From Candidatus Micrarchaeota archaeon (GTDB lineage Archaea; Micrarchaeota; Micrarchaeia; Anstonellales; Anstonellaceae), in assembly GCA_026413965.1 (NCBI GenBank), contig JAOAJY010000001.1:125275-189274 (forward strand): a stretch of DNA of 64,000 nucleotides, given 5' to 3'. This document shows, piece after piece, positions 4,976 through 45,326 of the stretch. Below the pieces are notes generated by a model, which had not been told where the DNA came from, did not search any database, and saw only the letters and a program-made list of their open reading frames with translations. How positions within the stretch are numbered: the first letter of the stretch is position 1; every line of letters begins with the position of its first letter. The position numbers and the translations under genes were made by a program.

Positions 4976-4987
4976 AGCGTAAGCGCC

Positions 4988-5479
4988 TTAGAAATTGAAA
5001 GCGGAGACTTTGTAAAATTTCGGCTCATTCTGGCTGCCGCAAGCCACAATCAGCTCAAGCCTTGCCAGATGCGCCACCCTCACTTCCTCCTCCAGGCTTT
5101 TTTTGGAAGGGAACTTGCCGGGAGCCAGGCACACCAATTGGCTGGGCCGCTCCTCTTCCCTGCCTACGCCAGGGGAATAGACGCGCAGATATTTGGAGGA
5201 GCCAGAATATGGGCGCACAATCCTTCCTTTTTTGCGGATGAGGGAATAGACTTTGAAGGCGAAGGCAAAAAGCTTGTCTTTTTTTGAGGCGCGCTTGAGG
5301 AATTGCTGCAGGGTTTGGCTTTGGAAGGAGGTATGCTTTTGCTGGGCAAGATATGCTGCCTCAAGCGGATGCAGAAGGTTTTCCTGCCCAGGAAGCCCGA
5401 AGCCTGCCTGCGCGAATTTGGAGCGGAGAGCCTCGTCTGACTCGCAAAAAAGCCCTGCCCCTTTTTTCTCAACAAGCAC
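4988..5479 (-). CDS. endA: tRNA-splicing endonuclease, short homotetramer-type
   Basis: FKVYSLIRKKGRIVRPYSGSSKYLRVYSPG matches the EndA YxVYxDLRxRGYxVKxGxKYGxDFRxY block. C-terminal VRVAHLARLELIVAC matches the catalytic His region. Length 163 aa. Confidence 0.65.
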   Translation of the reverse strand: MLVEKKGAGLFCESDEALRSKFAQAGFGLPGQENLLHPLEAAYLAQQKHTSFQSQTLQQFLKRASKKDKLFAFAFKVYSLIRKKGRIVRPYSGSSKYLRVYSPGVGREEERPSQLVCLAPGKFPSKKSLEEEVRVAHLARLELIVACGSQNEPKFYKVSAFNF

Positions 5480-5481
5480 GC

Positions 5482-6651: not shown

Positions 6652-7857
6652 TTGATTATGCCGCCATCAATTTTAAACCGTTGCCGCCTTCTTATCCCTA
6701 TGCTCATCGGATTGGTTGGCGCGCCCAATAAGGGGAAAAGCACCTTCTTCTCAGCAGCCACCATGGTGGATGCTCAGATTGCCAACTACCCATTCACAAC
6801 AATAAGCCCAAACAAAGGAGTGACATACGTCCGCGCCCCGTGCCCGCATGCGCCATTGGGGCTGCCTGGCTGCAACCCAAAAAACAGCAAGTGCATAGGC
6901 GGAACCCGCCTGGTGCCTGTCAATATTGTGGATGTGCCGGGCTTGGTTCCTGGCGCCCACAAAGGAAAGGGGCTTGGCAACAAGTTCTTGGACAGCATAC
7001 GGGAAGCGGACGCGCTGATACAGGTTTTGGACGGGACAGGAAAGACGGATTTGAATGGAAACCCCTGCGATTTTTCGCCGCCTATTGAGGAGGCCAGGTT
7101 CCTGAAAAATGAGCTTGCGATGTGGATTGCGGGGATAATGAAAAGGAGGGAAGGGAAAGCCGCAACGCAAAAAGAAGCGGCAGTTGCGCTTTCTGGGCTC
7201 AAAATCAGCGAGCAGATGATTGCGGATGCAGCAAGAAAATGCGGGCTGGACATAAGCGGAGGCATGCCTGATGAGGAAGGGATTGAGAGGATGGCGCGCG
7301 CAATTGTGGATTTGCGGATGCCTCTTGCAATCGCGTGCAACAAAGCAGACGCCCCTGGAGCTTGCAAAAACTGCAAAGAACTCAGGCAGGCATTAGGCAG
7401 CGGGGTTTTCATAGTCAGCGCAGCTATTGAGCTGGCGCTCCGGAAAGCCAATGAAAAGGGGCTGATAAAATATACGCCTGGCGACTCTGGATTTGAGATT
7501 GCCGGCAATCCAGATGAGAGGCAGCGCGAGGCGCTTGAGAAGATGAGGCTTTTTCTTGCGGAAAATGGAGGGAGCGGAGTCCAGCAAGCCATTGATTGGG
7601 TGGTGTATGGCTTGATTGGAGGCATTGTGGTCTATCCGGTGGAGGATGAGCACAGGCTCTCCAACCATAAAGGAGAGGTCCTGCCAGATGCCTTGTTGGT
7701 GCCAAGGGGCACAACCGTGCTGCAGCTGGCTGAAAGGATACACACCGATTTTGCCAAAAAATTCATAGGCGCAATTGATGCGAAAAGGAAAATCAGGGTT
7801 GGTGGCGACCATTTGCTCTCCAACGGCGATGTTATAAAGATTATTGCGTCTAGGTGA
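6652..7857 (+). CDS. Obg-family GTPase (YchF/OLA1-like) with C-terminal TGS domain
   Basis: G1 GLVGAPNKGKSTFF, G3 DVPGLV, and a C-terminal TGS-like beta-grasp region. The start is probably internal (around 6700). Confidence 0.6.
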   Translation: MIMPPSILNRCRLLIPMLIGLVGAPNKGKSTFFSAATMVDAQIANYPFTTISPNKGVTYVRAPCPHAPLGLPGCNPKNSKCIGGTRLVPVNIVDVPGLVPGAHKGKGLGNKFLDSIREADALIQVLDGTGKTDLNGNPCDFSPPIEEARFLKNELAMWIAGIMKRREGKAATQKEAAVALSGLKISEQMIADAARKCGLDISGGMPDEEGIERMARAIVDLRMPLAIACNKADAPGACKNCKELRQALGSGVFIVSAAIELALRKANEKGLIKYTPGDSGFEIAGNPDERQREALEKMRLFLAENGGSGVQQAIDWVVYGLIGGIVVYPVEDEHRLSNHKGEVLPDALLVPRGTTVLQLAERIHTDFAKKFIGAIDAKRKIRVGGDHLLSNGDVIKIIASR

Positions 7858-7873
7858 AAGGCAGGTGGTTGGC

Positions 7874-9355
7874 ATGAAAAAGGCGAAAGGCTCTGCAGGC
7901 TCGGGCAGCCAAAAACAAAGCAGCAGTGGAAACCAGAATTTTGCAAATTATGTGATAATTGGGGCTGCAGTGGCTGTGCTTGCTATTTTGGCTTTCATGC
8001 TTCTTGGAGAAAAAACGCCTCCTGCTGCCTCGCCTGCCAGCGGAGCTGCAGCGGAGCTTCTCCTGTCTGCTTATGACAAGGGAGCAGGAATGGTTGCCTA
8101 CCAGATGGCTTACTGGCAGGGCGAAAACGACGACATCAGCAACTACACCCTCAAAAGCTCTGGCAAGCAGCGCTTCGCCAAGGTGGAGGGAAGATTTGGC
8201 GCAATTGAGGGATATTTCGCCTATGAGTCTCCAGAGGCAATTTGCCTGGAATACGGCGAGGCAAAGCACTGCGCGGCTGTTGGAAACCACAGCGGAATGG
8301 AGGAGCTTGCAGGCAGCTTGAAAGCGCTTTTCCCAACCCGCAAGGCATATATGGAGCAAAAGGAGGCTCTCTCCAAGCTCATCAAAAACGGCGCCATACA
8401 ATTTGAAGGCGAAATCCTGCAGGAAAATGCAGGCAGCTTTGCAGCCAAAAAAATAGCATACAGGCTGGATTACTCAAACCTCACAGTCCAGCAGCTTGCG
8501 GATTTGGGGATTGACCCTGCCTCGCCAATGCTGAAAGACCTCAAAGAGCAGAAGGTGGCTTTTTGGATTGATGAGAAGACCGGCATGGTTGTCCGGAGCC
8601 TTTCCACCTATCTTGAAAAAGGAATCCCGAAAAAATACGAGACTTTCTATTCGGAGATTTTGCTTTCCCCGCCTGATGAGATTGCCTTGCCGAATGCCAC
8701 CTTGAGCCCCAGCCGCTTTTACCAGTTTTACCAGCAGGCGAAGGCAGATTTTGTGGAGAAGGAGCAGTGCCGCCTCTCTCCAAGGCAAGAGCAGCCGCAG
8801 TGCTACAAGAACTTGGCGTACAAAAAGGACGACCACAAGCTATGCCAGCCTATAGATGAGGAGAATGAGAGGGAGACCTGCATGCTGATAATTGCCCAGA
8901 AAACGAAAAATGACAGCATATGCGGGCTTCTCCGCAAGAGCAAAGACGACTGCTACATAAACGTCGCTGGGCAAAAAGGAGACTGGGAGATTTGCAAGAA
9001 GGTCTCGGATGCAGGCAGGCTTGAGGAGTGCGCCAACGCAGCAGCGCAAGGAGCTAAGATTATTGAGAGGGAAAAGCAAAGCGCCGCGCCTGCGCCTCCT
9101 AAAAATTGCGAAAAGAATGATGACTGCAAAGTCTTTGGCGCGCAGTATTGCGCCCCAAAAAACTCCACTGGCGACTTTGGGAGCGCTGACGAGTTTGCGG
9201 TTTGCTATGCTTCCATACCATGCGTTTGCGAAGAGGGCTACTGCAAGTTCAAAAAAGACGAGGATTTCTACGCATGCATAAGCAAGATAGAAGAGGGGAT
9301 TACCCGAAAATTCATATTGGACCTGATAGCGCAAAGCCAAAACAAAAGCGGATGA
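7874..9355 (+). CDS. membrane-anchored secreted Cys-rich protein
   Basis: Lys/Ser-rich N-terminus followed by a TM helix YVIIGAAVAVLAILAFMLL. The C-terminal 200 aa contain about 24 Cys in spaced pairs. Confidence 0.4.
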   Translation: MKKAKGSAGSGSQKQSSSGNQNFANYVIIGAAVAVLAILAFMLLGEKTPPAASPASGAAAELLLSAYDKGAGMVAYQMAYWQGENDDISNYTLKSSGKQRFAKVEGRFGAIEGYFAYESPEAICLEYGEAKHCAAVGNHSGMEELAGSLKALFPTRKAYMEQKEALSKLIKNGAIQFEGEILQENAGSFAAKKIAYRLDYSNLTVQQLADLGIDPASPMLKDLKEQKVAFWIDEKTGMVVRSLSTYLEKGIPKKYETFYSEILLSPPDEIALPNATLSPSRFYQFYQQAKADFVEKEQCRLSPRQEQPQCYKNLAYKKDDHKLCQPIDEENERETCMLIIAQKTKNDSICGLLRKSKDDCYINVAGQKGDWEICKKVSDAGRLEECANAAAQGAKIIEREKQSAAPAPPKNCEKNDDCKVFGAQYCAPKNSTGDFGSADEFAVCYASIPCVCEEGYCKFKKDEDFYACISKIEEGITRKFILDLIAQSQNKSG

Positions 9356-21677: not shown

Positions 21678-22088
21678 TCACAACAGATTGCCCAATCCAC
21701 TGCCTTCCAACGCTTTTTTCCGCTCGATATATGCCTTATGGAGCTTTTCCACCGCCCTTTCATCTATTCTTACCCTTCCGCCGTGCGGCCTGAGAGCTCC
21801 TGAGAAAGTTTTGGGTATGTGCAAAAGCTCGTGTATCAGCACCTTCTCCTTTTCGCTTTCAGGCAGCTTGTCGTAATGCTGGGAAACCACTTCTATTATG
21901 TAAAATGCCCCCACCCCAAGCGCCTTCTGCCATATCTTCGGCAAGTTCCATATCCTTGCGTATGCGTTTGCTTTGGTGTTGTATGAGCGCATGCAAAAAA
22001 TCCTGAACTCGTTTATATGCCCATAGGAAAGCGCGCTTACAATATCGGTTATTTTCCGCTCAACATCAGGAGCCATCTCAACCTGCAT
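21678..22088 (-). CDS. putative HExxH zinc metalloprotease (SprT/DUF45-like)
   Basis: HELLH motif in a 136-aa protein. Confidence 0.4.
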   Translation of the reverse strand: MQVEMAPDVERKITDIVSALSYGHINEFRIFCMRSYNTKANAYARIWNLPKIWQKALGVGAFYIIEVVSQHYDKLPESEKEKVLIHELLHIPKTFSGALRPHGGRVRIDERAVEKLHKAYIERKKALEGSGLGNLL

Positions 22089-22148: not shown

Positions 22149-23462
22149 ATGGGGAATCTGGAAGCCTTCTTCAGCAGGTGCCAAGAGGCATGCGAAGAAA
22201 TATTGCGCATGCAAAATCCCCTCGTAGTCCATCACTATGACTGCGACGGCATAGCGTCAGGCTCAATAGCGGCGTGGTGGCTTGAGCAGAATGGAAAGCA
22301 GTATCGCATGGTTTCGGTCAGGAAGCTGGACGAGCTTTTCCTAAGCTCCATCGCCGGCGAGCCTAATTTGGTGTTTGTGGATTTGGGGAGCGGAACCCCT
22401 ATGGTGGAAGAGCTCAAAAGCAGCATCGTCATAATTGACCACCACCAGCCTGCGTTCAAATCCTGCCTGCAGGCAAATCCCCATCTTTTTGGGTTTGATG
22501 GCGGGCATGAAATCTCCGCCTCAGGCTGCGCTCATTTTGTCTTCAACTCTCGGGCAGATTTGGGGGTGGTGGGGGCAGTTGGAGACATCCAATATCCTCT
22601 AAAAAGCCTCAACAGGATAATGCTTGACAAGGCAGTGTCATCCAAGCAGGTGGCAGTCTCCACAGACCTGCGCCTTTTTGGCAGGAATTCCCGACCGCTC
22701 ATCCAGTTCCTCTCATTCTCAGACGACCCTTACCTTCCAGGGCTCACAGGGAACGAGGAGGCTTGCGCCAAGCTCCTCTCAGAGCTTTCCATCAGCCTCA
22801 AAGAAGGGGAAAAATGGCGGGCGTATTCAGACTTGTCTTTGGAGGAAAAAAGGCGGCTGGTCTCCGCTCTTGCGGAGATCGTCTCGCAGCGCATCTCTCC
22901 AGAGGCAGCTTCCAGCCTCACAGGAGAGGTGTATTCTCTGCTGCAGCAGCCGCAAAACACAGAGCTTTCGGATGCTTCTGAATTTGCCACCCTGCTCAAC
23001 GCATGCGGCAGGAACTCCCAGCCGCAGCTGGGCGTGGATGTCTGCCTTTCCAGGCAAGGCGCCTTTGAGTCAGCCCGCCTCCTTTTGGCTGAGCATAGGA
23101 GAAGGCTGCGGGAAGGGATAGAATTTGCCCTCAAAAACGTGCAGGATTTCGGCAAGTTCTTTCTGATAGATGGCCGCGGAGCCATTCCAGACTCCATAAT
23201 CGGCGTGGTTTCAGGCATGATTTTTCCAGGAGGCAAAAGCAAGCCTGTGCTGGGGCTCTCCCTTGAGGAGACTGGCGCGATAAAGCTTTCTGCAAGGGGA
23301 ACTAGGAAGCTTGTTGAGGAAGGGCTCAACTTGGGCAAGATAATGGCAGAAGCAAGCTCTTCGGTCGGAGGGGTTGGCGGAGGGCACAACATAGCGGCAG
23401 GAGCCACCATACCCGCAGACAAGCTTGATGCGTTTGTGCAGGAGTTCGCAAGGAGGCTATGA
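22149..23462 (+). CDS. DHH-family phosphoesterase (RecJ/GAN-like)
   Basis: HHYDCDGIASG (motif I) and IIDHHQP (DHH motif). ATG at 22149 is in frame with the longer listed ORF. Confidence 0.6.
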   Translation: MGNLEAFFSRCQEACEEILRMQNPLVVHHYDCDGIASGSIAAWWLEQNGKQYRMVSVRKLDELFLSSIAGEPNLVFVDLGSGTPMVEELKSSIVIIDHHQPAFKSCLQANPHLFGFDGGHEISASGCAHFVFNSRADLGVVGAVGDIQYPLKSLNRIMLDKAVSSKQVAVSTDLRLFGRNSRPLIQFLSFSDDPYLPGLTGNEEACAKLLSELSISLKEGEKWRAYSDLSLEEKRRLVSALAEIVSQRISPEAASSLTGEVYSLLQQPQNTELSDASEFATLLNACGRNSQPQLGVDVCLSRQGAFESARLLLAEHRRRLREGIEFALKNVQDFGKFFLIDGRGAIPDSIIGVVSGMIFPGGKSKPVLGLSLEETGAIKLSARGTRKLVEEGLNLGKIMAEASSSVGGVGGGHNIAAGATIPADKLDAFVQEFARRL

Positions 23463-25766
23463 CTTCTTGGCTTTTTTGGGCTTCTCAATGCTTTCCTGCA
23501 TCTCCGCGCTTTCCTGGACTTCCTGGCTGACCAAAGAGGAGAAGACTTTTTGCCATTCAGCATCCACCAATTTCCAATCCACCTCTCCTTCTGATGCCTC
23601 CAGCCTCTTGAGCAGGTTGTTTGCTTGCGTGGTGCATTTGAGGACAAAGTCAAGCTCCAAAAACTGCGGGTGGGAATACTTGCGGGAAGCCTCGAGTATC
23701 TGAGAATAAAGCTTGCCTTTGAAAAACGCCTCCATGATGTACTGCGCAGGAGGAATTCCTGTCTCCTCGCATCTTCTCTCAAGAGCAGGAGGGATGAATT
23801 CCAACTTCAGACTCTTTGAGATTTTGCCCAAATCCGCATCAGCAAGAGACTTTGCCTCTGCTTCTGGGAGGTTGGTGAAAAGGCATTTCAGCCTGGTGCT
23901 CTCTATGTCTTCTCCCCTCTCAAGCCTGAAAACCTCCACAAATTTCCTCTCCTTCAAATCAGTCTCATACTGGAAGCCCAGCATCCTGTAAACCTGCGCC
24001 TTTCTCCCAAACCTCACTTTTTTGAGGAAAGAGTACCTGTCAGTTGAGAACATGGAGGCAGCCGGCACCCCAAACACCAGCTCAAGCCTGTCCTGCACGT
24101 CCTTCAACGACTGGGCATGGAGGTTGTAAAGAAGGAATATGCCTGGCTGCGTGTTCAGCAGGTTGATCACTCCCTGCACAGCAAGGCGCGAGCGGATTTC
24201 ATTTATTATGACGCAGGCATCTCCCATGCGCAAGGCCGCATTGGTCATGGAGACCAAGTCAAGCTCGCTGCTCCCTATGTCTTCCCTGTCTGAAGACTGG
24301 ACTTGCACTGCGCCTATGTGGAAACCGCGCTTCCGGTAGGCTTTGGTAGGAATCTCCTCAATATCCTGTATTGGCAATATCCTCTTCTTTGTCCCTATGG
24401 CGGCGATTTTTGCTGAGGTGAAGGCGGTTTTGCCCACTCCTTTTAGCCCAAGGACAGCCTCAGAGCAGCCCAGGCTGACCATGACATCGTCATATCCTGC
24501 AAAAAAAGGGCTCATGGAGCCAAGCTTAAGATACATGGGGTAGGTGAAAGGCTGGTCCCTCATTATCCTAAGCGCAGCTTGAAGCTCCCCGAAAGTCGCA
24601 GGCGGCCTTTGCAGGTGGCATCTCATGGCAAGCCGGGTGAGGACCACATCAATCACCGGCTGGTTCTTGTCAAACCGCTTGGTTCCTTGCGATGCCGCCA
24701 CTATGTTCTTGAACGCATTCTCCATCATCTCATGGTTGTATCTCCAAAGCGTATGGCACAGGCCGTACTTGGCATGCTCTATGTAAATGGGAGAATTCTC
24801 GCCATCGATGTAAATGTCAGTTATGTTGTCCCTGTCCAAAGCCATGTTCTCAATAGGCGCGCCCAAGCCAACCACCCATGCGGCAGCTTCTCTGCCCATG
24901 GCAATTGCCTGCTCTTGCGTTATGGGTATCTTCTCCAAAGTGGCTCGGTCTATGAACGATTGCGCATACTCGCGCGAGCGGTCATCAAAGACAGTCGCAT
25001 AATCCAACGTTTGCCGTATGTCTTTCAAGCCTTCCTGTATTGTAGCCCTAAGCATCTCCTGAAGCTTGGCAGGCAGGTTCTCTATGGTCGGGTTCTCAAT
25101 AGTGTAAAGGTGCGCCTCTCCGCCGGGTATGTCGTAGATTTTCACTTGCAGCCCTCCTGGAAGCTCGTATTGGGCATCCTTTGAGTCAATCAAGACAGCC
25201 TCCTTTGGGACTGAGAGCATGAAGTTTTGTATGAAAAGCAGGCTCTTGAGCCCAAGCAGCGCCAAAAAGGCCGCCCGCAAATCCCCTGTCTTTTGGCAAA
25301 GAAGATAAAGGGAAGACTTGGTGTAGGCTTCAAGTATCCCATTCACCCAAGCCTTGAAGTTCCTGTGCCCCTCAACAAAAACCGCCTTTTCTGGGTAAGG
25401 CTCGCTGTATGACTTCAGCACTTGCGCAGCCACCAGCGGATTCATGAACATGAATTCGTAAAAGTCTTTCAGCGCCTTCTTTCTCTGCTGGTAATAGTCG
25501 TCCTCGGGCCTGCCATAAGTCTTTGGGTTGAGCATTATCGCCTCGACCTGCCTCACAATAGCGTTGTACTCAGAAATTATCGCGCTTTTTTCAGCATCCA
25601 GCTCCACCACTATCTCTTCTTCATATCTCATGGTTTTCCAAGGCTTCAGGAGCTGCGAGGTGACCCTCAGATGCGAGTTTATGCACTGGGGGGTGGTCAA
25701 TCCAAGGCCGCAAGTGGGGCAGTCCATCACCAGGCGCATCCCTTGGTATGAAGGTCGGCAACCCAT
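23457..25766 (-). CDS. highly divergent type II/IV secretion-family ATPase (FlaI/PilB/VirB11-like) with long N- and C-terminal extensions
   Basis: N2-like ITDIYIDGENSPIYIEHAKYG, Walker A GLKGVGKT, Asp box RILPIQDIEEIP, Walker B DACVIINEIRS, and His box LLNTQPGIFLLYNLHAQS, in canonical order. Length 769 aa. Confidence 0.55.
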   Translation of the reverse strand: MGCRPSYQGMRLVMDCPTCGLGLTTPQCINSHLRVTSQLLKPWKTMRYEEEIVVELDAEKSAIISEYNAIVRQVEAIMLNPKTYGRPEDDYYQQRKKALKDFYEFMFMNPLVAAQVLKSYSEPYPEKAVFVEGHRNFKAWVNGILEAYTKSSLYLLCQKTGDLRAAFLALLGLKSLLFIQNFMLSVPKEAVLIDSKDAQYELPGGLQVKIYDIPGGEAHLYTIENPTIENLPAKLQEMLRATIQEGLKDIRQTLDYATVFDDRSREYAQSFIDRATLEKIPITQEQAIAMGREAAAWVVGLGAPIENMALDRDNITDIYIDGENSPIYIEHAKYGLCHTLWRYNHEMMENAFKNIVAASQGTKRFDKNQPVIDVVLTRLAMRCHLQRPPATFGELQAALRIMRDQPFTYPMYLKLGSMSPFFAGYDDVMVSLGCSEAVLGLKGVGKTAFTSAKIAAIGTKKRILPIQDIEEIPTKAYRKRGFHIGAVQVQSSDREDIGSSELDLVSMTNAALRMGDACVIINEIRSRLAVQGVINLLNTQPGIFLLYNLHAQSLKDVQDRLELVFGVPAASMFSTDRYSFLKKVRFGRKAQVYRMLGFQYETDLKERKFVEVFRLERGEDIESTRLKCLFTNLPEAEAKSLADADLGKISKSLKLEFIPPALERRCEETGIPPAQYIMEAFFKGKLYSQILEASRKYSHPQFLELDFVLKCTTQANNLLKRLEASEGEVDWKLVDAEWQKVFSSLVSQEVQESAEMQESIEKPKKAKKS

Positions 25767-29577: not shown

Positions 29578-30474
29578 ATGCTGGAGTTCTTCCAAGCCCC
29601 GCCAGAAGTTCCTGGGATAGAGGCAAGGATTGCTGTGGCAGTGGCTTTCACGGCAGCTGCGGCATACTATGACATGTTCAACAAAAAATGGGTGCCAAAC
29701 GCGCTCCTTTACGCGTTCATCCTTTCCGCCATCGCCGTCAACATAGCTTTTTTTGAGGAGAAGGTTTTCATGCAAGCAGTTGCGTTTGGCGCAGCTGCAT
29801 TTGCGGTTTCCTATCCTTTGTACAAAATGGGGCAGCTTGGAGGGGCAGACGTCTATGCTTATTCAGGAATAGCCCTCTCCATTCCCTATCTTCCTCAGCC
29901 TATTTTTGGGCCTGCCCAGCAGATTCCATACCCATTTCTTTTCTCAGCGCTTGCCCCAACCGGGCTGGCTTTCATTGCCCACATGCTTGTCAGGTTCGTC
30001 CCATACATAGCGGCAAGGCTCAAGTCAGGAGAGGTTCGGATAAGCGCGCAAAAAGCAGCCCCGGCAGCCCTGATTTCGCTTGCGTTCCTGTTTTTCATCT
30101 ATTCGCTGTCCAGCCTGCCAGTGGCTCTCCCCGCCCACTATCTTGCCATTCTTGGCTTTCTTTTTTCAGCGCTGGTTTTCTTCTCATTGTTCAAGGAGGA
30201 AATCAAGGAAAGCATGATAGAGTACCTGCCGCTTTCAAAAATCCAGCCAGAAGATGTGCTTGCTGTTGAGAAAATGGACCAAAAGGCAGTCTTGCGCTTG
30301 AGGCTTAATCCGCTGCTTGACCAAGGAGCAATCAGCAGGATGAAAAAAGCGAAGCTCAAAAAAGCCCCAATATTCACCAAGATGCCATTTTTCTTGCCCT
30401 ACCTTCTCTTCGGGCTCATCATCAGCATCCTTTTTGGGGACATGGTGCATTTCTTCCTCAATTCCGCCTTATAG
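29578..30474 (+). CDS. A24-family prepilin/preflagellin peptidase
   Basis: First catalytic Asp block YYDMFNKKWVPNALL (D x4 K x VPN), second block MGQLGGADVYAYSGIAL (GGxD), and a polytopic membrane topology. Confidence 0.55.
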   Translation: MLEFFQAPPEVPGIEARIAVAVAFTAAAAYYDMFNKKWVPNALLYAFILSAIAVNIAFFEEKVFMQAVAFGAAAFAVSYPLYKMGQLGGADVYAYSGIALSIPYLPQPIFGPAQQIPYPFLFSALAPTGLAFIAHMLVRFVPYIAARLKSGEVRISAQKAAPAALISLAFLFFIYSLSSLPVALPAHYLAILGFLFSALVFFSLFKEEIKESMIEYLPLSKIQPEDVLAVEKMDQKAVLRLRLNPLLDQGAISRMKKAKLKKAPIFTKMPFFLPYLLFGLIISILFGDMVHFFLNSAL

Positions 30475-34731: not shown

Positions 34732-35514
34732 TTGGCGGAAGAGAAAAAAGAAAAGCAGGCGCTTTTGGAGAGCCTTCCAGACGGCTTGAAGGAGATAGCG
34801 GATATACCTCAAGAAAAGCTCCTCACGCTGCCTGCGAAAGAGCAAGAGAAGCAAGAGCTCCTGCCCTCTCAGCAGCAAAAGCCTGCGCTTCCTGAAAGGC
34901 CCCGCACCCAAAAAGAAAAAGAGCTGGACGAGCTTATAGCCGCCCGCCAATCCATAATTGAGCAGCTTAAGGAGAAAAACCCAAAGCTTGCCGAGGCGCG
35001 CAAGCAAATAGCCTCCCTTCTGCCATCCCTCAAAGGCAAAGGAGCTGGCAAAGCAGTGGAGCTTATGCGGGAGGAAGAGAGGATAGAATTCTCAATCGCA
35101 ACCGAAGCATACACTCCCAAGCAGGAGCGGGAGCTTCTCAAGCGCCTGAGAGCCATAAGGGCAGAGCTTTCGCAGCACAAGGAGCTTGACGCGATAAGAA
35201 AGCAGGTGGAGGAGAAAAGAGCAGAGGTCAGGGCTTTGGCCTCTGAGATAAAGGAGTTGGAGAAAAAGCTTGCCGAGGCGCGCGCCGCCTGCGACGCAAA
35301 ATACGCAGAAGTTCTTGCGGAAAGGAAAGCTGCTTATGAAAAAAGGCAGCGCGAAAGGGCACAAAAGAGGCAGGAGCGCCTTTCTAGCCTTCTTGAAGCC
35401 AGGAAGAGAAAGCGGGAAAAGGAAATGGCAAAATACATGAAAGCATTTGACGACACAGTCTCAATGGATGAGATAGTGCAGATAGAGCGCAAAGAGAAAA
35501 AGAGCAAAAAATAA
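34732..35514 (+). CDS. Lys/Glu-rich coiled-coil protein (start uncertain)
   Basis: Heptad-rich KE sequence. The listed ORF begins inside the GAPDH 3' end. TTG at 34732 has an SD-like AGAGGG. The last 37 coding nt plus stop form repeat copy 1. Confidence 0.35.
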   Translation: MAEEKKEKQALLESLPDGLKEIADIPQEKLLTLPAKEQEKQELLPSQQQKPALPERPRTQKEKELDELIAARQSIIEQLKEKNPKLAEARKQIASLLPSLKGKGAGKAVELMREEERIEFSIATEAYTPKQERELLKRLRAIRAELSQHKELDAIRKQVEEKRAEVRALASEIKELEKKLAEARAACDAKYAEVLAERKAAYEKRQRERAQKRQERLSSLLEARKRKREKEMAKYMKAFDDTVSMDEIVQIERKEKKSKK

Positions 35515-35524
35515 TCATTCAAGA
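35475..35524 (+). repeat. 50-bp perfect direct repeat, copy 1 (AGTGCAGATAGAGCGCAAAGAGAAAAAGAGCAAAAAATAATCATTCAAGA)
   Basis: Identical to 36419-36468 by direct comparison. Covers the 3' end and stop codon of the upstream gene. Confidence 0.9.
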
Positions 35525-35550
35525 TTCAGCCCATCCAAACTAATAAAAAT

Positions 35551-35557
35551 AAGGAGG
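35551..35557 (+). promoter_or_regulatory. Shine-Dalgarno-like AAGGAGG 13 nt upstream of pilin ATG
   Basis: Seen directly in the sequence. Confidence 0.4.
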
Positions 35558-35570
35558 CAGTATAAAAGGT

Positions 35571-36392
35571 ATGCGTGGCTACTCCTTAAAAAAAGCTCAA
35601 GGAAGCACGGAATACCTAGGTATAATGATAATCGTCCTGGTGATCGCACTTGTTTCTATATCAATAATGAACGATGCATTTGTCAAGACATCAGATGTTA
35701 AGGTATCCGAAAGCTCTGCCTATTGGCAGTCTGCTTCTCCGATTGCAATTCTGGAATCTAGGGCAGATGCTTCTGGCTTGACATTTAAGGTTAGGAATAA
35801 TGGGTTAGAAAGGATCGAAATAAATGGGATTCTTTCTTCTGGCTCGCAAATTCCCCTTTCACCTGCCATTTCTCTTTCCCCTGGCGAAGAAAGATTGATT
35901 TCTAATATAGCTGGATTGAACCTTACAGCAGGCAGAAAAAAGGTAGATGTTTTTTCACTCGGTTTTTCCTATACGGTTCGCTTCGGCTCAATGTCCATGA
36001 CCAAGATCCAGACAGGCCCCCCAGTCACCTCCATAGTATGTGGTGATGCCGATTGCTCTAGCCTCGGCAGCTCTTCTGGTTGCGGAATAGGGTGCGGATT
36101 TGGCTATACCTGTTGCAGCTATGAGCCTGGGCAGTATGCCTGTCTATTTGCAAGCGGAGGGACACTATGCAGCGGATTTGAAGTGTGCAGCGAAGGAAAG
36201 TTTTACTGCGAGCCAATGGGCCAGTGTGTCCCCCTAGGAACAATCTGCAATAATTGCATGGGCAGCTGCGGAGAGGGGCAAGTGTGCTGTGTTTGCGATG
36301 CCCAATGTGTTCCTGAAGGGCAGTGTGCTTGCGAACACTGCTTGGAAATCCAATGCTCAGGCGGGAACTGCATCTGCGTTTCTCAAGGATGA
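35571..36392 (+). CDS. archaeal type IV pilin-like protein (class III signal, DUF361-like QGSTEYL motif) with Cys-rich C-terminal domain
   Basis: MRGYSLKKAQGSTEYLGIMIIVLVIALVSISI is a prepilin-peptidase signal plus hydrophobic helix. The C-terminal ~115 aa contain about 30 Cys (CGIGCGFGYTCCSYEPGQYAC...CVCDAQCVPEGQCACEHC). Confidence 0.6.
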   Translation: MRGYSLKKAQGSTEYLGIMIIVLVIALVSISIMNDAFVKTSDVKVSESSAYWQSASPIAILESRADASGLTFKVRNNGLERIEINGILSSGSQIPLSPAISLSPGEERLISNIAGLNLTAGRKKVDVFSLGFSYTVRFGSMSMTKIQTGPPVTSIVCGDADCSSLGSSSGCGIGCGFGYTCCSYEPGQYACLFASGGTLCSGFEVCSEGKFYCEPMGQCVPLGTICNNCMGSCGEGQVCCVCDAQCVPEGQCACEHCLEIQCSGGNCICVSQG

Positions 36393-36418: not shown

Positions 36419-36468
36419 AGTGCAGATAGAGCGCAAAGAGAAAAAGAGCAAAAAATAATCATTCAAGA
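36419..36468 (+). repeat. 50-bp perfect direct repeat, copy 2
   Basis: Identical to 35475-35524. Lies between the pilin stop codon and the convergent geranylgeranyl reductase stop, overlapping its last two codons. Confidence 0.9.
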
Positions 36469-38410: not shown

Positions 38411-39274
38411 TTGGCTCAAGCAGCAGCCAAAGGCTTTCTCTCAGCGCTCTTTGCCTTTTTGCTTGCCTCCGGCTTATCCCTAAGCGTCATGGCGCAAAAG
38501 CTGCTTGACGCCGAAGCCTATATGGCTTCAATTGAGAAATACGCTTCCTATTCTGAAATGAGGAATCACTTGGCGGCATCCATCGCAAGAAGCTTCCCGC
38601 CAAATTTGAGGCAGGGCGCGCAAGAAGAGATAAGAAGCGCCATAACTGAGGATTATCTGCGCAGCCAAGTGCGAAATGCAGTGGGCTCTGCCCTCGACTA
38701 TCTTTCCTCAAAATCAGACAGGCTTTATTTGCGGATGGACCTCTCTCCAATCAAAGAAAAGCTGAAAGAAAGCCAGCTGCCTGAGTTGAGGGTTGCCTCT
38801 CAAGCCTTTCCTGCCAGTCTTGATTTGGCTGAGGAAGAGGGGAACTTGGAGCAGATGAAGCAGCTGGAAAGCGCGCGCCAGCAGATAAGCCAGGCAAACA
38901 AAATAAAGCACCTGCTTGTCGCAGCCTCTATCCTGCCTCTTGCGTTGCTTTTCTTTTTCCATGAAGGCTATAGAGGCTGGCTGCATGGGTGCGGAAGCCT
39001 TCTTTTGAAGGCAGGCGTATCTTGCCTATCTTTAAGCGCAGTCCTTTTTGCCATGCCTTTTGCTCTGCCAGAAATCCTTCCGTCCATGCAAAATTCATCG
39101 CAGGGAGCTGAAACCGCCCGCCTTGCCGGGCAGATATTGGGGGAAGTTTTTTCGCAGGCAGGAGTTGAGCTTGCGCTGCATTCCGCCCCAATCATTTTGG
39201 CAGGCGGAGCCCTCATGCTCCTGCTCAAGAAGCCCGAAACGAATAATAATCCAAGCTCCGAAGCTTCTGCATGA
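38411..39274 (+). CDS. hypothetical membrane protein
   Basis: TTG start. N-terminal TM helix plus C-terminal TM helices. Its stop overlaps the start of the giant downstream gene. Confidence 0.35.
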   Translation: MAQAAAKGFLSALFAFLLASGLSLSVMAQKLLDAEAYMASIEKYASYSEMRNHLAASIARSFPPNLRQGAQEEIRSAITEDYLRSQVRNAVGSALDYLSSKSDRLYLRMDLSPIKEKLKESQLPELRVASQAFPASLDLAEEEGNLEQMKQLESARQQISQANKIKHLLVAASILPLALLFFFHEGYRGWLHGCGSLLLKAGVSCLSLSAVLFAMPFALPEILPSMQNSSQGAETARLAGQILGEVFSQAGVELALHSAPIILAGGALMLLLKKPETNNNPSSEASA

Positions 39275-42200
39275 TGATGGGGTGTCCAAAAAGGCACCTT
39301 GCCTTTCTTGCGAGCCTTCTTCTTTTCGGCTTAGCTTTCCCATCCGGGCTTTCAGGCTGCTTTTCCCCATCGCCTCTTGAAAGGTTCTGGGAGAGCCCAG
39401 GGTATTTCGAGTCCAACCCGCACGTTTCCAATTTGGGCATTTTCAAGTTCTATTCCTACGCATTTGACAATTCGACAAAAAGCCTGGAGCTTGAGCAAAC
39501 AGCGCTGCTGTCGCAGCAGGAAATCTTTTCTGCCCTAAGCCTCGAGCAAAGGGAAGAATTCTTCCCAGCCATAAAAGAGCTTGAGGCATCGCAAAGCCAC
39601 CTTTCGAAGGCAAAAGCGCATGCCGCAGAAGCCCAGAGGCTTTCCTCAGAGTCCCAAAAGCTCGCCTCGCATATTTTTGACCAAACCCAAATCGCCCTCC
39701 TTTACCTCCCCTATCCATTTTCCAACTTGCCGGCAATATGGCTTTTTCTCAAGTCCCAGGCAGCCTCTGAGTATATCTCAAAATACCCTGCAACTCTGCA
39801 AGCCGCATATTCCCACTCGGCAAGCGCCTATGACTCTGCCCAAAAAGCAGCCTATCTTGCAGCCTCCCTTGCGGACAAAAAAGCCTCGGCATTGCTGTTT
39901 GCAGGGGCAGGAGACGCCAAATACTCAGGGAAGGCGAAAAGCGCCTATTACCGCTACCAGGAGCTTCTTTCCTCAGGCAGGCTTTGCGGCAAGCAAAGGG
40001 CAGAAAGCATACGCGGCTATTTTTCATCCAGCCCCAGCATGCCTGACTTTTCGCAGGCAGGGTTCGGCCAGCATCTGAGGCAGATTGCAGGCAAAGGCAA
40101 CAATTCCTCGCTTTTCCAGCTTGCTTTGCTTTATTCCGAGCTTTCCTCTGCCCATGCCGCCATGCAAGAGGAGTACTTTGAGATGAGGGCAAGCGCGCTG
40201 GAATCCCAAAGGCAGCTTGAGCTCCACATTTCCCTGCTGGAGTCCGAAAGGCTGGACCTGATAGACAGCCTATCAAATGAGGCTGGACAAAAGAGCCTTT
40301 CAGCAGGGACAGGCTTTGCCGGGCTCTCCAGCGGCCTGAAAATAGCCAAAGACAGGCTCTTCTCATCGCAGCACCTTCTTTCGTCATCCGAATCCATCGC
40401 AAAATCAAAAGATTACCAAGGCTACCTTTCGGATGCAATCCACAAAGCCTCGCAAGCCAAAGAGCTCTCCCAAAGCTCGCTTTCTTCTCTGTCCAAAATA
40501 AGGCAAGACGCAATTTTTCTTGCGGACGGCAAAAGAAAAGAGGCGGAGCAATCCATATTAGACGCTGAAAGCTATTTCTCAAATGGAAGCCAGGCAAGCT
40601 CAAAAATGCGGGCGCAGTCTCTTCTCATGCTTCAGGATGCGAAAAAGAAGTTCAGCCTTGCGTCACAGGCAAAGCGGATAGGGGAGCAGTTTGTCCTTTA
40701 TTCAGAGGCAAAAGCCATGGCAGAAGCTTCGCGCCAGGCTTTGCTCACTGGAAGCCTGGCTTCCGCGAAAGAGCAAGCCTTCAAGGAGGTCCAGGCGCTT
40801 TCTGATGCCATCTTGAAGGCAGAAAAGGACGGGCTGGATGTCTCCTTTGAGAAGTCCAAGCTTGCAGAGTACCAGCAGCTTTTGCAGCTTGTTGATTCTG
40901 CGGAGGCAATGCTTGCATTAAGCGAAGCTTCCAGAAGCGAGCATCAAGGGCTGATTTTGAGGCTTTCAGGAAAATACCGGCATCTCTCCGACGGATTCCC
41001 GCAGCTGCAAATGCTTGTGCTGGAAATAAGAAAAAAAGACCCGCTTTTCTTGCCGGAGTTTGACAGCGTGTCCAAATACTTCAAGGAGGGGGGTTTGGAC
41101 GCCAAGGAGGCTGCAGGCAAGCTGAAGGAAATAGAGGCTTCCATCAGCGAGCTATTATCCAAGGCAAAAAGCAGAATACCTCAGCACCTCTCGCAGGTGC
41201 TCTCGGAGAATGCAGAAGCCATAGAGCTAAGGGAGCCGTTCTCGATAGGCAAGCCAAGCAAATACAAGGCAAGCATCCACACCCAAAACACAGCAGAGAT
41301 TGGCTACAGCGGCACTGTGGTGTTTTTTGCCAGGACTTCCTCTGCCCTCTCAACCCAGGACTTTTCAGGAGGAAGCCCAATCAAAGACGCTTACCAAAAA
41401 GAAGGCAAAACCGCAATAGAGATTTCCGGAGTTTCTCCAAAGCAAACCCTGTCTTTCTTCTTTGAGAAATTTGAGCAGCCGGTCCAGGCAGTCTCCCTAA
41501 AGCCATTTTGCCATTCCGCTACTCAGGAGGAGGCTTCAGCAGGGGCAGAGCTTCGTTTTGTGTCAGAAAAGCCGCTGGAATCGGCTTTTTTTGCCCTGCC
41601 TGCCCCAGAAAGCCTGGCAAGCCCATCAGCATCATATCTTGGCTTCCCTGCTGACTACATAAGGCAAGCCCCAGGAGGGATGCTTGAGGGGAGAATATCC
41701 CAAATCCAAAAGGGCGATGGGAGGCTGGAAATAAGCTATAAAGTCATGAAGCCATTTGATGCCAAAGTTGTCGAGGAGAGCTCCAAAAGCCTAGGGGCAG
41801 GAAGGCAAGCCATCCGCATGTCTTTGGTGGTTGAGAACGCGGCTCTTGATTGCGCACAAGCTTCAGTCTCTTTCCAGCTTCCTTATTTTGGGATTGAGAA
41901 CTTCTCCGTCGCAAGCCCAAGCGGCAGTGCCATATTGTCCAAGCAGGTTGCGCAAAACTCCGCAGGCTCTGAAGCAAAATTTGCCTTTTCCCCTCTTGCC
42001 AAGGGCTCAAAAGCGCATTTTGAGCTGCATTTTGAGGTCCAAAACAAATCTGAAGCTTTAAGCCACGCTATCCGGATGCTTGAGCTTTCAGCTTTGCACT
42101 CAAACAGCACCCTCCAGCATTTGGCTTTGGAGCAAGCGCGGCTTCTTGCAGAGGCAAACAAGACTGATGAGGCGCTGCTTCTTTCCCAGTCAGCCTACCG

Positions 42201-43317
42201 CCTTCAAAGCCAAAGCAGCCCTCTTGACATCATCTCCTACCAAGAGAGCCTGGAGCATGCCCAAGCTCTCCTCTCTTCGGCAAAATCCTCCCAAAAAGCA
42301 ATGCGCCAATCCTCATCAATGCATCTTGAGCTGTCAAAGGCAATAGCAGACCTTGAGTCTTCAATCTCGTCAGCCTCTTTTCTGGCTGAGCGCGGAAGCT
42401 ACTCAAAGGCGGCAAGCCAGCTTAGGGAATCTTCTGGCAGCTTCCAATCTTTCATAGCCCAGCTTGCCTCAAAATCCGCAAATGACGCATTGGAAGGGTA
42501 TTCAAAGGCAAAAGAGAGGCAGGCGGACCAAGCGCTGCTTTCATCCTGCTCGCAGGCAATTTCCCAGGGAAGCCGCCTGTTTTCCCAAGGCGAAATCCTA
42601 AAGTCGCTTGAGCGCTTCGCAGAAGCCCAAAGCATCCTGTCTGAAATTTCCGGCATCCAGGAAGCTCAAGAGAAAGAGCTGGCTTTGCAGGCAGAAGAGA
42701 TAGGGAAAAAATTCCAAGCCCTAAAAGAAGAGTTTGAAAGCAAGCTTTCGTCATATTCTCCGCAGTACTCCTCATTGTCCCAGCAAAGCAGAAGGAAGCT
42801 TCCAATAACCCCAAGCGAGGCGCAGGCAAGGCTCGCGGAGGCGCAAAGGAAGATTTCCTCAGCCTCAAAATACAAGGATGCCAAGCAGCGGCTGCAAGAG
42901 GCGAGCCAATCCTACATGCTTTTGGAGTCTGCGGACAAGTCGCTTTCAGATGCAATAAGCCAATTGCGCTCCTCAGCAGAGTCATCGCTTAAGGTGGCAA
43001 GAATAGCTTTGGCTGAGGCGCAAGCAAAGTCCTCAAGCCAGGACAGCTCCCTGCTGGCTCAGATGGAGAAAGAGGCTGAGAAGGCAGAGGAGGCTTACGC
43101 CAACGGGCTTTATGCGGATTCCCTTTCGTCTTCTGACAGGGTGATAAGCGCGGCAAACGCGCTGTTGTCATCAAAAAAGCAAGATGGCATCCCCAAGGCA
43201 GAATTGCTTGCAGCCATCTCCGCCATATTCATTATTGCGGCTGCCTATTTCCTGCTCTCAAAAGCCAACAGGGGCAGCCAGAAAAAAGAGAAGAAAAGCA
43301 TCCCCAAGTCCGATTAG
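39271..43317 (+). CDS. giant (1348 aa) low-complexity coiled-coil surface protein with N-terminal signal/lipobox-like peptide and C-terminal TM anchor
   Basis: N-terminus MMMGCPKRHLAFLASLLLFGLAFPSGLSGC. Body rich in Ser/Ala/Leu/Gln/Glu/Lys. C-terminus LLAAISAIFIIAAAYFLLSKANRGSQKKEKK. Confidence 0.5.
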   Translation: MMMGCPKRHLAFLASLLLFGLAFPSGLSGCFSPSPLERFWESPGYFESNPHVSNLGIFKFYSYAFDNSTKSLELEQTALLSQQEIFSALSLEQREEFFPAIKELEASQSHLSKAKAHAAEAQRLSSESQKLASHIFDQTQIALLYLPYPFSNLPAIWLFLKSQAASEYISKYPATLQAAYSHSASAYDSAQKAAYLAASLADKKASALLFAGAGDAKYSGKAKSAYYRYQELLSSGRLCGKQRAESIRGYFSSSPSMPDFSQAGFGQHLRQIAGKGNNSSLFQLALLYSELSSAHAAMQEEYFEMRASALESQRQLELHISLLESERLDLIDSLSNEAGQKSLSAGTGFAGLSSGLKIAKDRLFSSQHLLSSSESIAKSKDYQGYLSDAIHKASQAKELSQSSLSSLSKIRQDAIFLADGKRKEAEQSILDAESYFSNGSQASSKMRAQSLLMLQDAKKKFSLASQAKRIGEQFVLYSEAKAMAEASRQALLTGSLASAKEQAFKEVQALSDAILKAEKDGLDVSFEKSKLAEYQQLLQLVDSAEAMLALSEASRSEHQGLILRLSGKYRHLSDGFPQLQMLVLEIRKKDPLFLPEFDSVSKYFKEGGLDAKEAAGKLKEIEASISELLSKAKSRIPQHLSQVLSENAEAIELREPFSIGKPSKYKASIHTQNTAEIGYSGTVVFFARTSSALSTQDFSGGSPIKDAYQKEGKTAIEISGVSPKQTLSFFFEKFEQPVQAVSLKPFCHSATQEEASAGAELRFVSEKPLESAFFALPAPESLASPSASYLGFPADYIRQAPGGMLEGRISQIQKGDGRLEISYKVMKPFDAKVVEESSKSLGAGRQAIRMSLVVENAALDCAQASVSFQLPYFGIENFSVASPSGSAILSKQVAQNSAGSEAKFAFSPLAKGSKAHFELHFEVQNKSEALSHAIRMLELSALHSNSTLQHLALEQARLLAEANKTDEALLLSQSAYRLQSQSSPLDIISYQESLEHAQALLSSAKSSQKAMRQSSSMHLELSKAIADLESSISSASFLAERGSYSKAASQLRESSGSFQSFIAQLASKSANDALEGYSKAKERQADQALLSSCSQAISQGSRLFSQGEILKSLERFAEAQSILSEISGIQEAQEKELALQAEEIGKKFQALKEEFESKLSSYSPQYSSLSQQSRRKLPITPSEAQARLAEAQRKISSASKYKDAKQRLQEASQSYMLLESADKSLSDAISQLRSSAESSLKVARIALAEAQAKSSSQDSSLLAQMEKEAEKAEEAYANGLYADSLSSSDRVISAANALLSSKKQDGIPKAELLAAISAIFIIAAAYFLLSKANRGSQKKEKKSIPKSD

Positions 43318-43934
43318 CCTAGCCTGGCAATCTCGGATTCTATGGCTTGCTTGAATTTCCCAAAAGGCTGCGCACCCATTATCTTGGTTTCCCCAATCTT
43401 GAAGGTGGGCGTCGCAGCAATCCCTTCCTTTTCTGCCTCTTCCATGTCTTTAAGCACCTTCTCCCTCCCCCTGCCGGATGCCACGCAAGATCGGAATTCC
43501 TCCATGTCAACCCCAATTTCTGATGCGTGCTTTTGCAGGTCCGAGTCCGAAAGCGCATGCTGGCTTGAAAAGAGCCTGTCGTGCATCTCCCAGAATTTGC
43601 CCTGCTCCTCGGCGCAGGCAGCCGCAATCGCAGCAGGCATGGCTCGGGGATGGATTCCAACAAGCGGATAGTGCCGGAAGACCAGCTTCACCTCATTAGG
43701 ATAAGCCCGCAACACCTCCTCAACAACAGGCTGCGCTTTAGCGCAGAATGGGCATTCGAAGTCCGAATACTCATAAATCACGATTTTCGCACTCGGGCTT
43801 CCGCGGTATGCTCTCCCATTTTCCATTCCTGCGCTTATGGGCGCGGCTGCGCACCCAAAAAGCAAAGCTGCCATAAGAGCCAGCAGCGCAAAATTCCTCA
43901 TGCATGCAGATAGGGCAAAATCGATTAAAACCAT
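43314..43934 (-). CDS. DsbA-like thiol:disulfide oxidoreductase with N-terminal membrane anchor/signal
   Basis: Thioredoxin active site FECPFCAKAQP with a hydrophobic N-terminus. Confidence 0.65.
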   Translation of the reverse strand: MVLIDFALSACMRNFALLALMAALLFGCAAAPISAGMENGRAYRGSPSAKIVIYEYSDFECPFCAKAQPVVEEVLRAYPNEVKLVFRHYPLVGIHPRAMPAAIAAACAEEQGKFWEMHDRLFSSQHALSDSDLQKHASEIGVDMEEFRSCVASGRGREKVLKDMEEAEKEGIAATPTFKIGETKIMGAQPFGKFKQAIESEIARLG

Positions 43935-43959
43935 TTCTGCTAACTATTTTGGTGGTTTT

Positions 43960-44358
43960 ATGTATCAGGCAAAGCTGATAAAGGCAGATACCATCCCTGA
44001 GGCTGCCGAGCAAATAAGGAAAATAGACGTCGGAGAGGAGTGCGTCAGGATAATGAAAGACAAGGCAGTCTTCCGCCTCGTCAAGCTGCATGATGTGCGG
44101 AATGCTGTCGCCAACATAATAAAGCAAGAGATGATTTCGTGCGGCGGAGACGCCACAGTCTCGCAATGGACTGTCAATTGCACGCACCCAAAAACAGATG
44201 TTCTTCTGATGGGCACCATAAAGCAATACAAGCTTCTTATTGCCAAGATGAGGATGCAAGGCGCCTACAGGCCAAACGAAGAGAAGAAAAAAGAATACAA
44301 GGCAGTCTGCGACGAGCTTTCTGAGATCCTCAAAGACGACTTGAAGCCAAAAGACTGA
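43960..44358 (+). CDS. hypothetical protein
   Basis: 133-aa ORF from an in-frame ATG. No confidently recognised motif. Confidence 0.3.
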   Translation: MYQAKLIKADTIPEAAEQIRKIDVGEECVRIMKDKAVFRLVKLHDVRNAVANIIKQEMISCGGDATVSQWTVNCTHPKTDVLLMGTIKQYKLLIAKMRMQGAYRPNEEKKKEYKAVCDELSEILKDDLKPKD

Positions 44359-44417
44359 GGGCTTGCCCTCTTGCCCAGCCTGGCAATTATAAAACTTAGC
44401 TGGCATATGTAGTTGGT

Positions 44418-45326
44418 GTGGGCGTGCGGGACCTCATTTCAATCCGCGACCTTGGGAAAAAAGACATAGAGTCCTTCCTTTCAGAAGCCTCCAGGATGGA
44501 AAAGCTGCTGACCAAGCCAAAGCACCTGCTCTCAGGAAAGATAATCGCCAGCATGTTCTTTGAGGCATCCACCAGGACCAACATGTCTTTCCAGACTGCC
44601 GCAAAAAGGCTGGGCGGAAAGCTTCTGACTTTTTACCCTTCCATAAGCTCCGCAGCCAAAGGAGAAAGCCTGGCAGACACGATAAGGATGATGGATGGCT
44701 ATGTGGATGCTATTGTGCTGCGCCATCCTTACGAGGGGGCTGCCCGGTTTGCAGCTGATTTGGCGGAGCATCCTGTGATAAATGCGGGGGATGGCGGAAA
44801 CCAGCATCCGACTCAGACGTTGATTGACCTTTACACAATCAAGAAGCTCAAAGGAAAAATCCAGGGCTTGAAAGTGACGCTTATGGGCGACTTGAAGCAT
44901 GCCCGCGCAATGCGCTCGCTTCTTTACGGCCTTTCGATGTTTGGCGCAGAAGTGGCTCTTGCCTCCCCGCCTTCGCTTGCGATGGACCAGGACATAATAA
45001 GCGAAGTGAAAAGCAAATTTGGGGCAGAGCCCGTCCAGTCGCAAAAGGCTGAGCTTAAGGACTGCGACGTGCTTTACGTGTGCAGGATACAAAAGGAGCG
45101 CTTCCCAGACCAGTATGAGGCTGAAAAGATGCAGAGGGATTTCCGGGTGGACTTGGAGCTGCTCAGCCACGCAGATGAGTCAATGGCAATACTCCATCCT
45201 CTGCCCAAAGTCGATGAGATACCGCCAGAGGTGGATTCAGACCCCCGCGCAAAATACTTTGAGCAGGCGAAAAACGGCGTGCCTGTCCGCATGGCGGTCC
45301 TGAACAAATGCATAAATGGAAGGTAA
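44418..45326 (+). CDS. pyrB: aspartate carbamoyltransferase catalytic subunit
   Basis: STRTR block FEASTRTNMSFQTAAKRLGG, HPTQ, about 302 aa. Confidence 0.85.
   Translation: MGVRDLISIRDLGKKDIESFLSEASRMEKLLTKPKHLLSGKIIASMFFEASTRTNMSFQTAAKRLGGKLLTFYPSISSAAKGESLADTIRMMDGYVDAIVLRHPYEGAARFAADLAEHPVINAGDGGNQHPTQTLIDLYTIKKLKGKIQGLKVTLMGDLKHARAMRSLLYGLSMFGAEVALASPPSLAMDQDIISEVKSKFGAEPVQSQKAELKDCDVLYVCRIQKERFPDQYEAEKMQRDFRVDLELLSHADESMAILHPLPKVDEIPPEVDSDPRAKYFEQAKNGVPVRMAVLNKCINGR

Follow-up and report, generated by a model that had tools for sequence, protein, structure and literature searches.

A single gene in a 64,000-nt stretch of a Candidatus Micrarchaeota genome (assembly GCA_026413965.1, contig JAOAJY010000001.1, positions 125,275 to 189,274 of the forward strand; hereafter the window, numbered from its first letter) joins a complete archaeal pilin module to a distinct tail of 117 residues that contains 24 cysteines. 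On balance, we favor a reading of its product as a modular type IV pilin that serves as a minor subunit, probably displayed at the tip, and bears a disulfide-stitched binding module. For DPANN archaea, Micrarchaeota among them, a life in attachment to other cells is generally assumed, but few of the molecules responsible for this contact have been identified; a pilin with a conserved Cys-rich module is a concrete candidate for such a contact molecule. The practical value is moderate: the analysis provides a hypothesis, together with a clean construct for biochemical work, but no new mechanism.

The gene for this bimodular pilin (35571..36392 on the forward strand, including the stop codon) starts with ATG and encodes 273 aa, according to the list of open reading frames (ORFs) and the translation. 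The product was 100% identical to NCBI MCX8197739.1 (N3F07_00890) from a Candidatus Micrarchaeota metagenome-assembled genome (MAG), where it is annotated as a "hypothetical protein" on a contig of 219 kb. An initial annotation, made from the sequence alone, had given the same position and N-terminal sequence, and had reported about 30 cysteines in an extremely Cys-dense C-terminal third with CC, CxC, and CxxC spacings. The density and the spacings were confirmed, whereas the count and the proportion were not. The protein has 24 Cys, all of them in residues 157–273 (36039..36389, forward strand) and none in residues 1–156, and this module makes up 43% of the protein. Its 117 residues are 20.5% Cys and also include 21 Gly, with the spacings CC (twice), CxC (three times), CxxC (twice), and CxxxC (three times). 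The mean Cys content across the crude gene set of the window was 1.7%, and the second-densest 117-aa stretch in the window, in a zinc-ribbon protein, contained 13 Cys. The enrichment was confined to the pilin reading frame, with the other two frames interrupted by stops. The Cys-dense tail is real and far from chance. Among its other residues are 8 aromatics (4 Phe and 4 Tyr), 8 Glu, 3 Asp, and 1 Lys, and the module is acidic to neutral, without cationic character.

The N-terminus, MRGYSLKKA followed by QGSTEYLGIMIIVLVIALVSISI, comprises a basic leader, an Ala-Gln junction, and then approximately 20 hydrophobic residues. The predicted class III signal leader MRGYSLKKA (35571..35597, forward strand) would be cut before Q10 according to the known rules for PibD/EppA substrates, placing Q at +1, S at +3, and E at +5. 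The Pfam profile Class_IIIsignal (PF04021) aligned over its full length (profile positions 1–27 of 27) to residues 7–33 with 14.9 bits (E = 0.027; cut-off 23.7 bits). Relatives scored 13–20 bits with this profile, and Q10, G11, T13, E14, Y15, and L16 were invariant among them. The class III pilin signal proposed in the initial annotation is thus present as the leader with the Q+1/E+5 motif, with a full-length PF04021 alignment below the cut-off.

Structure prediction and a family survey were consistent with the N-terminal motif. In the AlphaFold2 model of the whole protein, obtained with a 6-sequence alignment, an alpha-helix at the N-terminus, hydrophobic in character (residues 13–54; 35607..35732, forward strand), was followed by a globular pilin domain with a beta-sandwich fold (residues 58–157; 35742..36041, forward strand) ending at the family-conserved Cys157. 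The pLDDT (predicted local distance difference test score) of the helix and beta-sandwich was 76–93, and the best Foldseek matches were archaeal type IV pilins. When the family alignment was used to scan species-representative genomes, it revealed 171 relatives with the motifs [KR][AG]QG[AS]TEYL and YWQSASPI. The family matches listed were all from Micrarchaeota or unclassified-archaeon MAGs, and many copies per genome were frequent. Pilin-only relatives (P0003–P0006) end at a conserved "...KPLxxxC" that aligns with Cys157, the residue at which the 117-aa tail begins. The N-terminal portion is a genuine pilin module. The motif, the predicted helix and beta-sandwich, the pilin matches, and a prepilin peptidase gene upstream (see below) all support the earlier claim of a pilin fused to a Cys-rich module.

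To follow the tail through known proteins, a word-index search was combined with an exhaustive hidden Markov model (HMM) profile search over 1.84 billion representative proteins. The tail was present in just two further lineages, that is, in three lineages in total; in both it is again fused to a pilin, a combination that the initial annotation had suggested looking for in related genomes. The first ortholog (P0002) has 280 aa, is 43% identical to the window protein over the full length, and lies on two small contigs (L001 and L081) from two Joint Genome Institute (JGI) samples. The second (P0008/P0009) has 262 aa as called, and its contig (L080) is 16 kb long. No relatives of the module turned up when viral contigs were scanned. 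When the window protein was aligned with P0002, 23 of the 24 Cys were matched and the remaining one was shifted by 1 residue, whereas the identity at non-Cys positions of the tail was 40%. Nineteen Cys columns were invariant through all three lineages. This pattern shows strong purifying selection acting specifically on the cysteines, and an even Cys number together with Cys conservation exceeding that of other positions is the hallmark of structural cysteines.

The same comparison bears on the concern, raised in the initial annotation, that a frameshift or mis-assembly had joined a pilin gene to unrelated Cys-rich sequence. Perfect 50-bp repeats stand on either side of the gene, and an assembly loop could in principle explain them. 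However, these repeats lie outside the ORF, and the pilin–tail fusion in a single ORF, with the same Cys pattern, recurs on three contigs assembled from other samples (L001, L081, and L080). Moreover, Cys157, where the module starts, is precisely the point at which the pilin-only relatives end. Because two independent lineages share the fusion, an artificial junction is ruled out for the fusion itself, and we regard an artifactual origin of the protein as extremely improbable.

Two sequence variants were observed in the orthologs. In L080, P0009 (5734–5830) is split by a frameshift within the signal-peptide helix, which is caused by a 7-bp tandem duplication (CCTAAGC CCTAAGC); deleting one CCTAAGC copy restores ...QGATEYLVILSVVLIISL... 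in frame. A sequencing error, a phase-variable switch, and a pseudogene are all conceivable explanations. In the P0002 copy of L081 (131–973), the first Cys of the CGIGCG motif is replaced by Gly; this change would give an odd Cys number, and is either a polymorphism or an error.

The initial annotation had proposed an HMM search and a structure prediction for a knottin, EGF-like, or metallothionein-like fold, and neither the Pfam, the PDB sequence, nor the fold search supported any of these. Pfam and NCBIfam searches with the whole protein and with the tail alone returned no family for the tail even at E ≤ 1, Pfam Granulin included. The best match of the tail profile among PDB sequences was a defensin, which was not significant (E = 0.27). 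The sole match outside the family among the 1.84 billion proteins was a eukaryotic protein with 13 granulin repeats, whose E value of 1.7e-8 was summed over 13 stretches. Both sequences contain a local pattern, CGxGxxCC...GxYxC in the module and CPxGxxCC...GxYxCC in granulin. The summed score reflects this local or compositional pattern and does not demonstrate homology to granulin. AlphaFold2 models of the tail, either within the whole protein or alone (3 sequences), proposed four beta-hairpins at a pLDDT of 45–55. With this low-confidence model, Foldseek gave no match at E < 1; the best (E = 1.1) were led by LDL-receptor A, granulin, and EGF structures. A granulin, EGF, or knottin-type module is therefore not supported, there being no significant sequence-profile or fold match. 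Granulins, EGF-like and LDL-receptor class A domains, knottins, and defensins resemble the module in Cys density and in the predicted Gly-rich beta-hairpins, but their Cys spacing is different and they are essentially eukaryotic. The module appears to be a new small disulfide-rich domain, of a class that is rare in prokaryotes. The tail also has an apparent internal duplication, with CxxxCGxGxxCC and QCVPxG occurring twice each; its statistical support is weak, since 78 of 2000 shuffles reached its score.

The defensin and granulin similarities, weak as they are, would also fit a membrane-active or toxin-like tip, in which a module of the defensin or granulin type perturbs or pierces the host envelope to establish DPANN–host contact. 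They are the only similarities detected, and granulin, LDL-receptor A, and EGF structures head the non-significant fold matches. Yet no single domain was matched significantly, the Granulin family of Pfam was silent, and the module is not cationic, so that we consider a toxin-like function very unlikely.

A third possibility is that the cysteines are reduced and chelate metals, bind sulfide minerals, or take part in redox chemistry at the cell surface. The module has the high Cys content in CxC, CC, and CxxC motifs that characterizes metallothioneins, strict conservation would suit metal ligands as well as disulfides, and many Micrarchaeota come from anoxic, metal-rich settings. Unlike metallothioneins, however, it contains 8 aromatic residues and predicted beta-hairpins, and neither a metallothionein nor any other metal-binding family was matched in Pfam, NCBIfam, or the PDB; metallothionein-like features are thus only partly present. 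The predicted extracellular location and a DsbA-like oxidase with a CPFC site, encoded 7 kb away, also speak against reduced cysteines. The CxxCH heme motif is absent from the protein, in which the module's CEHC holds the single His, and nothing else points to conduction; a multiheme cytochrome or conductive pilus component is accordingly not supported. We judge metal or mineral binding to be improbable, less so than a toxin-like tip.

Genes that could process, assemble, and oxidize the protein are encoded in the window. An A24-family prepilin peptidase, the predicted enzyme for class III signal processing, lies 5 kb upstream of the pilin gene (29578..30474, forward strand; Pfam Peptidase_A24, 34.9 bits vs a cut-off of 26.5, E = 2.3e-8), and its place is kept in relatives. 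On the reverse strand, at 23457..25766, a 769-aa divergent ATPase for type IV filament assembly was recognized by phmmer against the PDB (CpaF, 1.5e-10; Archaeoglobus GspE, 3.2e-9; FlaI, 1.5e-5); it had no Pfam match, and its long N-terminal extension carries a CxxC...C motif. The DsbA-like thiol:disulfide oxidoreductase (43314..43901, also delimited as 43314–43934, reverse strand) has a lipoprotein-type signal, LLFGC, in addition to the CPFC active site, and matched Pfam Thioredoxin_4 (3.1e-31) and DSBA (1.5e-23). A 503-aa protein (7844–9355, forward strand) has an N-terminal membrane anchor and a Cys-rich C-terminal region of approximately 190 aa without a Pfam family, and is likely an extracytoplasmic disulfide-containing protein. 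With a DsbA-like lipoprotein and an anchored Cys-rich protein, the organism appears to be equipped for extracytoplasmic disulfides, and the DsbA-like gene provides supportive context, but only context, for oxidation of the module.

Within the 64-kb window, neither a platform protein (FlaJ/TadC) nor a further ORF with a class III signal was found, indicating that the pilin gene stands alone. This isolation among housekeeping genes raises the alternative of surface display without a pilus, in which the class III signal and the helix would just anchor and process an envelope protein, perhaps within a short pseudopilus like the Sulfolobus bindosome. Archaeal proteins that have class III signals without being classical pilins are well documented (bioRxiv 10.64898/2026.04.22.720090). 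On the other hand, stand-alone pilin genes are frequent in archaea (PMC4858521), and a complete globular pilin domain, common to the 171 pilin-like relatives, would be needless if only a signal peptide were required. We therefore regard display without a pilus as unlikely, although it deserves more weight than the metal-binding explanation.

For the favored reading, a modular pilin, the following sequence of events can be proposed. The A24 peptidase would remove the leader MRGYSLKKA, and the hydrophobic N-terminal helix would anchor the protein in the membrane, after which the CpaF/FlaI-like ATPase could build it into a type IV pilus-like filament. The beta-sandwich domain would carry the module on the outside of the cell, directly after its conserved last Cys. 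There, the 24 Cys would be oxidized to form up to 12 disulfides, probably aided by the nearby DsbA-like lipoprotein, and the oxidized module might be a compact and very stable stack of beta-hairpins that offers a surface to which a host cell, a partner cell, or a substratum could bind. Because the subunit is bulky, it is most likely a low-abundance minor pilin, probably located at the tip.

This proposal follows the logic of the modular pilins of bacteria, in which the filament displays a grafted module, probably at its tip, and binding is mediated by that module (PMC8179133). The architecture also agrees with that of archaeal class III signal proteins bearing functional domains, such as the bindosome (PMC4858521; bioRxiv 10.64898/2026.04.22.720090). 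A complete pilin module plus a distinct extra module that does not belong to pilus biogenesis is the defining architecture of modular type IV pilins, and it is what the gene encodes. As in Streptococcus sanguinis PilB (pilin plus vWA) and PilC (pilin plus lectin) (Raynaud et al. 2021, PMC8179133), the C-terminal module is grafted directly on the pilin module, and, as in bacteria, one carrier is combined with many modules inside one lineage (see below). The present protein differs in several respects: it comes from an archaeon, its class III signal belongs to the DUF361/EppA type, its pilin domain is a beta-sandwich, and its Cys-rich module, for which adhesion and tip location are proposed, has no database signature. 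Compared with archaeal class III/type IV pilins (PF04021, formerly DUF361; Epd, Aap, and Pyrobaculum; Makarova et al. 2016, PMC4858521), it has the same leader, Q+1/E+5 residues, helix, and beta-sandwich, and an A24 peptidase and a FlaI/CpaF-like ATPase in the same genome. Those pilins, however, typically have 120–220 aa and 0–4 Cys, whereas the window protein adds the 117-aa tail with its 24 Cys.

Several results weigh against the interpretation as a modular pilin. The Class_IIIsignal score is under the Pfam gathering threshold, and the gene is outside any pilus operon, with no platform protein in the window. The low confidence of the tail model means that no fold or disulfide pattern is assigned. 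The frameshift in the L080 ortholog suggests that some populations can do without the gene or vary in it. A general linkage between DsbA and pilin loci was rejected, since just 1 other locus of approximately 80 examined showed it.

The pilin domain also carries other C-terminal modules. We took 135 ORFs with the class III motif from 78 related loci and L001, and these had a modal Cys number of 2 and a median length of 169 aa. A 341-aa relative (L063) bears an Lcl_C domain after the end of the pilin domain (36 bits, above the Pfam cut-off). An FGE-sulfatase-like match in L078 was sub-threshold (18.0 bits vs a cut-off of 23.3); paralogs in L018, L076, and L043 were grouped with it by sequence resemblance by eye, and the four have approximately 400–490 aa. 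In L028, a pilin-family protein of 1365 aa has a long extension, for which the label "LamG-like" is an impression only. Since diverse C-terminal modules follow the same domain end, the pilin domain is a general carrier, suggesting a whole repertoire of archaeal modular pilins. The Micrarchaeota pilin domain thereby extends the idea of modular pilins from bacteria to archaea.

Among 134 relatives, about five had other Cys-dense tails (L065, L056, L046, L007, and L037), the extreme being a protein of 525 aa with 66 Cys (L065, 8001–9578). The statement in the initial annotation that archaeal pilins are normally Cys-poor thus holds for the family at large, given its modal 2 Cys, but not for these five, whose tails are unrelated to the present one. 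Searching the 135 Micrarchaeota pilin-like ORFs with the tail profile did not detect the other Cys-rich tails as homologous, indicating that Cys-rich modules were attached repeatedly or have diverged past recognition. A Cys-rich tail on a pilin is a recurrent theme and not unique to the window protein. A loose C-G-x-G-x-x-C-C theme was seen in many of the other Cys-dense tails. In L059 (approximately 3900–5500, reverse strand), a tandem array of four small class III signal proteins (123–207 aa) with 6–12 Cys each may be a cluster of Cys-containing pilin paralogs.

The pilin gene was inserted recently between two housekeeping genes. Its surroundings are archaeal housekeeping genes, including those for family B DNA polymerase, GAPDH, geranylgeranyl reductase, SRP54, GatD/E, H+-PPase, Cdc6, and SufBCD. 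Two identical 50-bp direct repeats flank it (35475..35524 and 36419..36468, forward strand); no such exact pair was expected by chance, and the 64 kb contain no other long perfect repeat. Copy 1 includes the last 12 codons and the stop of the upstream coiled-coil gene. Copy 2 includes the stop codon at which the convergent geranylgeranyl reductase gene ends; within the repeat, this codon lies 4 nt past the coiled-coil gene stop. Because the repeat duplicates the ends of both convergent neighbors, both genes stay intact. In the closest relatives by reductase identity (L083, 82%; L084/L085, 72%), the conserved gene order is Pus10, A24 peptidase, PolB, GAPDH, coiled-coil, geranylgeranyl reductase, metallo-beta-lactamase-fold, a surface protein of approximately 1340 aa, OTCase, and PyrI. 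The coiled-coil/reductase junction was uninterrupted in L083 (3924–4364) and in L084 (7150–7300)/L085, with a 6-nt gap or a 12-nt overlap. When the insert and one repeat were removed, the window was colinear with L083 over the junction (449 bp, 69%), and tblastn detected no pilin in L083 or L084. With the 50-bp repeats and the pilin-free junction in the closest relatives, the gene is a lineage-specific 0.9-kb insertion. Flanking repeats and empty sites of this kind point to the acquisition of such surface genes in the form of small cassettes.

The insert is 894 bp long, with the pilin as its only ORF, and the GC content of its 5′ half was 0.38–0.43, compared with 0.51 for the window. A TATA-like A/T-rich box read from the sequence, TAATAAAAATAA (35541..35552, forward strand), lies inside the insert approximately 25 nt upstream of the ATG and is a putative promoter element; a promoter and terminator scan with a bacterial-type model, which is uninformative for an archaeon, found nothing. 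No recombinase or integrase was found in the insert or among approximately 60 window ORFs scanned, and the 50-bp repeat had no match in JGI metagenomes. The orthologous Cys-rich pilins occupy a different context, common to them (CDC48, pilin, MJ0043-like), and no flanking repeats were found around those in L001, L080, and L081.

The observed repeat pattern is the one expected if a circular molecule had undergone a single crossover at a 50-bp site. As in integrated elements flanked by att sites, perfect direct repeats duplicate the 3′ end of the target gene and relatives have an empty site; unlike them, the insert is only 894 bp, carries one gene without an integrase, and is not targeted to a tRNA gene. 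An integrase may have acted in trans, or the repeat may be an assembly loop. A bolder version, in which the pilin and its module form a self-contained 0.9-kb mobile cassette with its own promoter and att-like repeats, hopping among Micrarchaeota sites and genomes, and in which the module is a new prokaryotic disulfide-knot or surface metal-binding fold, seems to us improbable. If it were true, such a cassette could swap the adhesive pilus tip, and hence the host or substrate specificity.

The DsbA-like gene is missing from the syntenic position in L084, where the surface-protein and OTCase genes are 33 nt apart (1232–1265). In the window, the DsbA-like gene and an unassigned 173-aa ORF (43837–44358, forward strand) sit between the large surface-protein gene and OTCase (43314–44418). 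The genome that acquired the Cys-rich pilin thus seems to have received a further lineage-specific insertion here, that of a disulfide oxidoreductase.

The adjacent surface-protein gene (39271–43317, forward strand) encodes a Ser/Ala/Gln-rich protein of 1348 aa that appears coiled-coil by eye, with an N-terminal lipobox-like signal and a C-terminal transmembrane anchor. It has no Pfam family, its counterparts at the same position in relatives have 1339–1355 aa, and it is a candidate S-layer or envelope protein. Elsewhere among the housekeeping genes, a small ORF (21678–22088, reverse strand) matched the Pfam family "Putative phage metallopeptidase" (2.5e-21).

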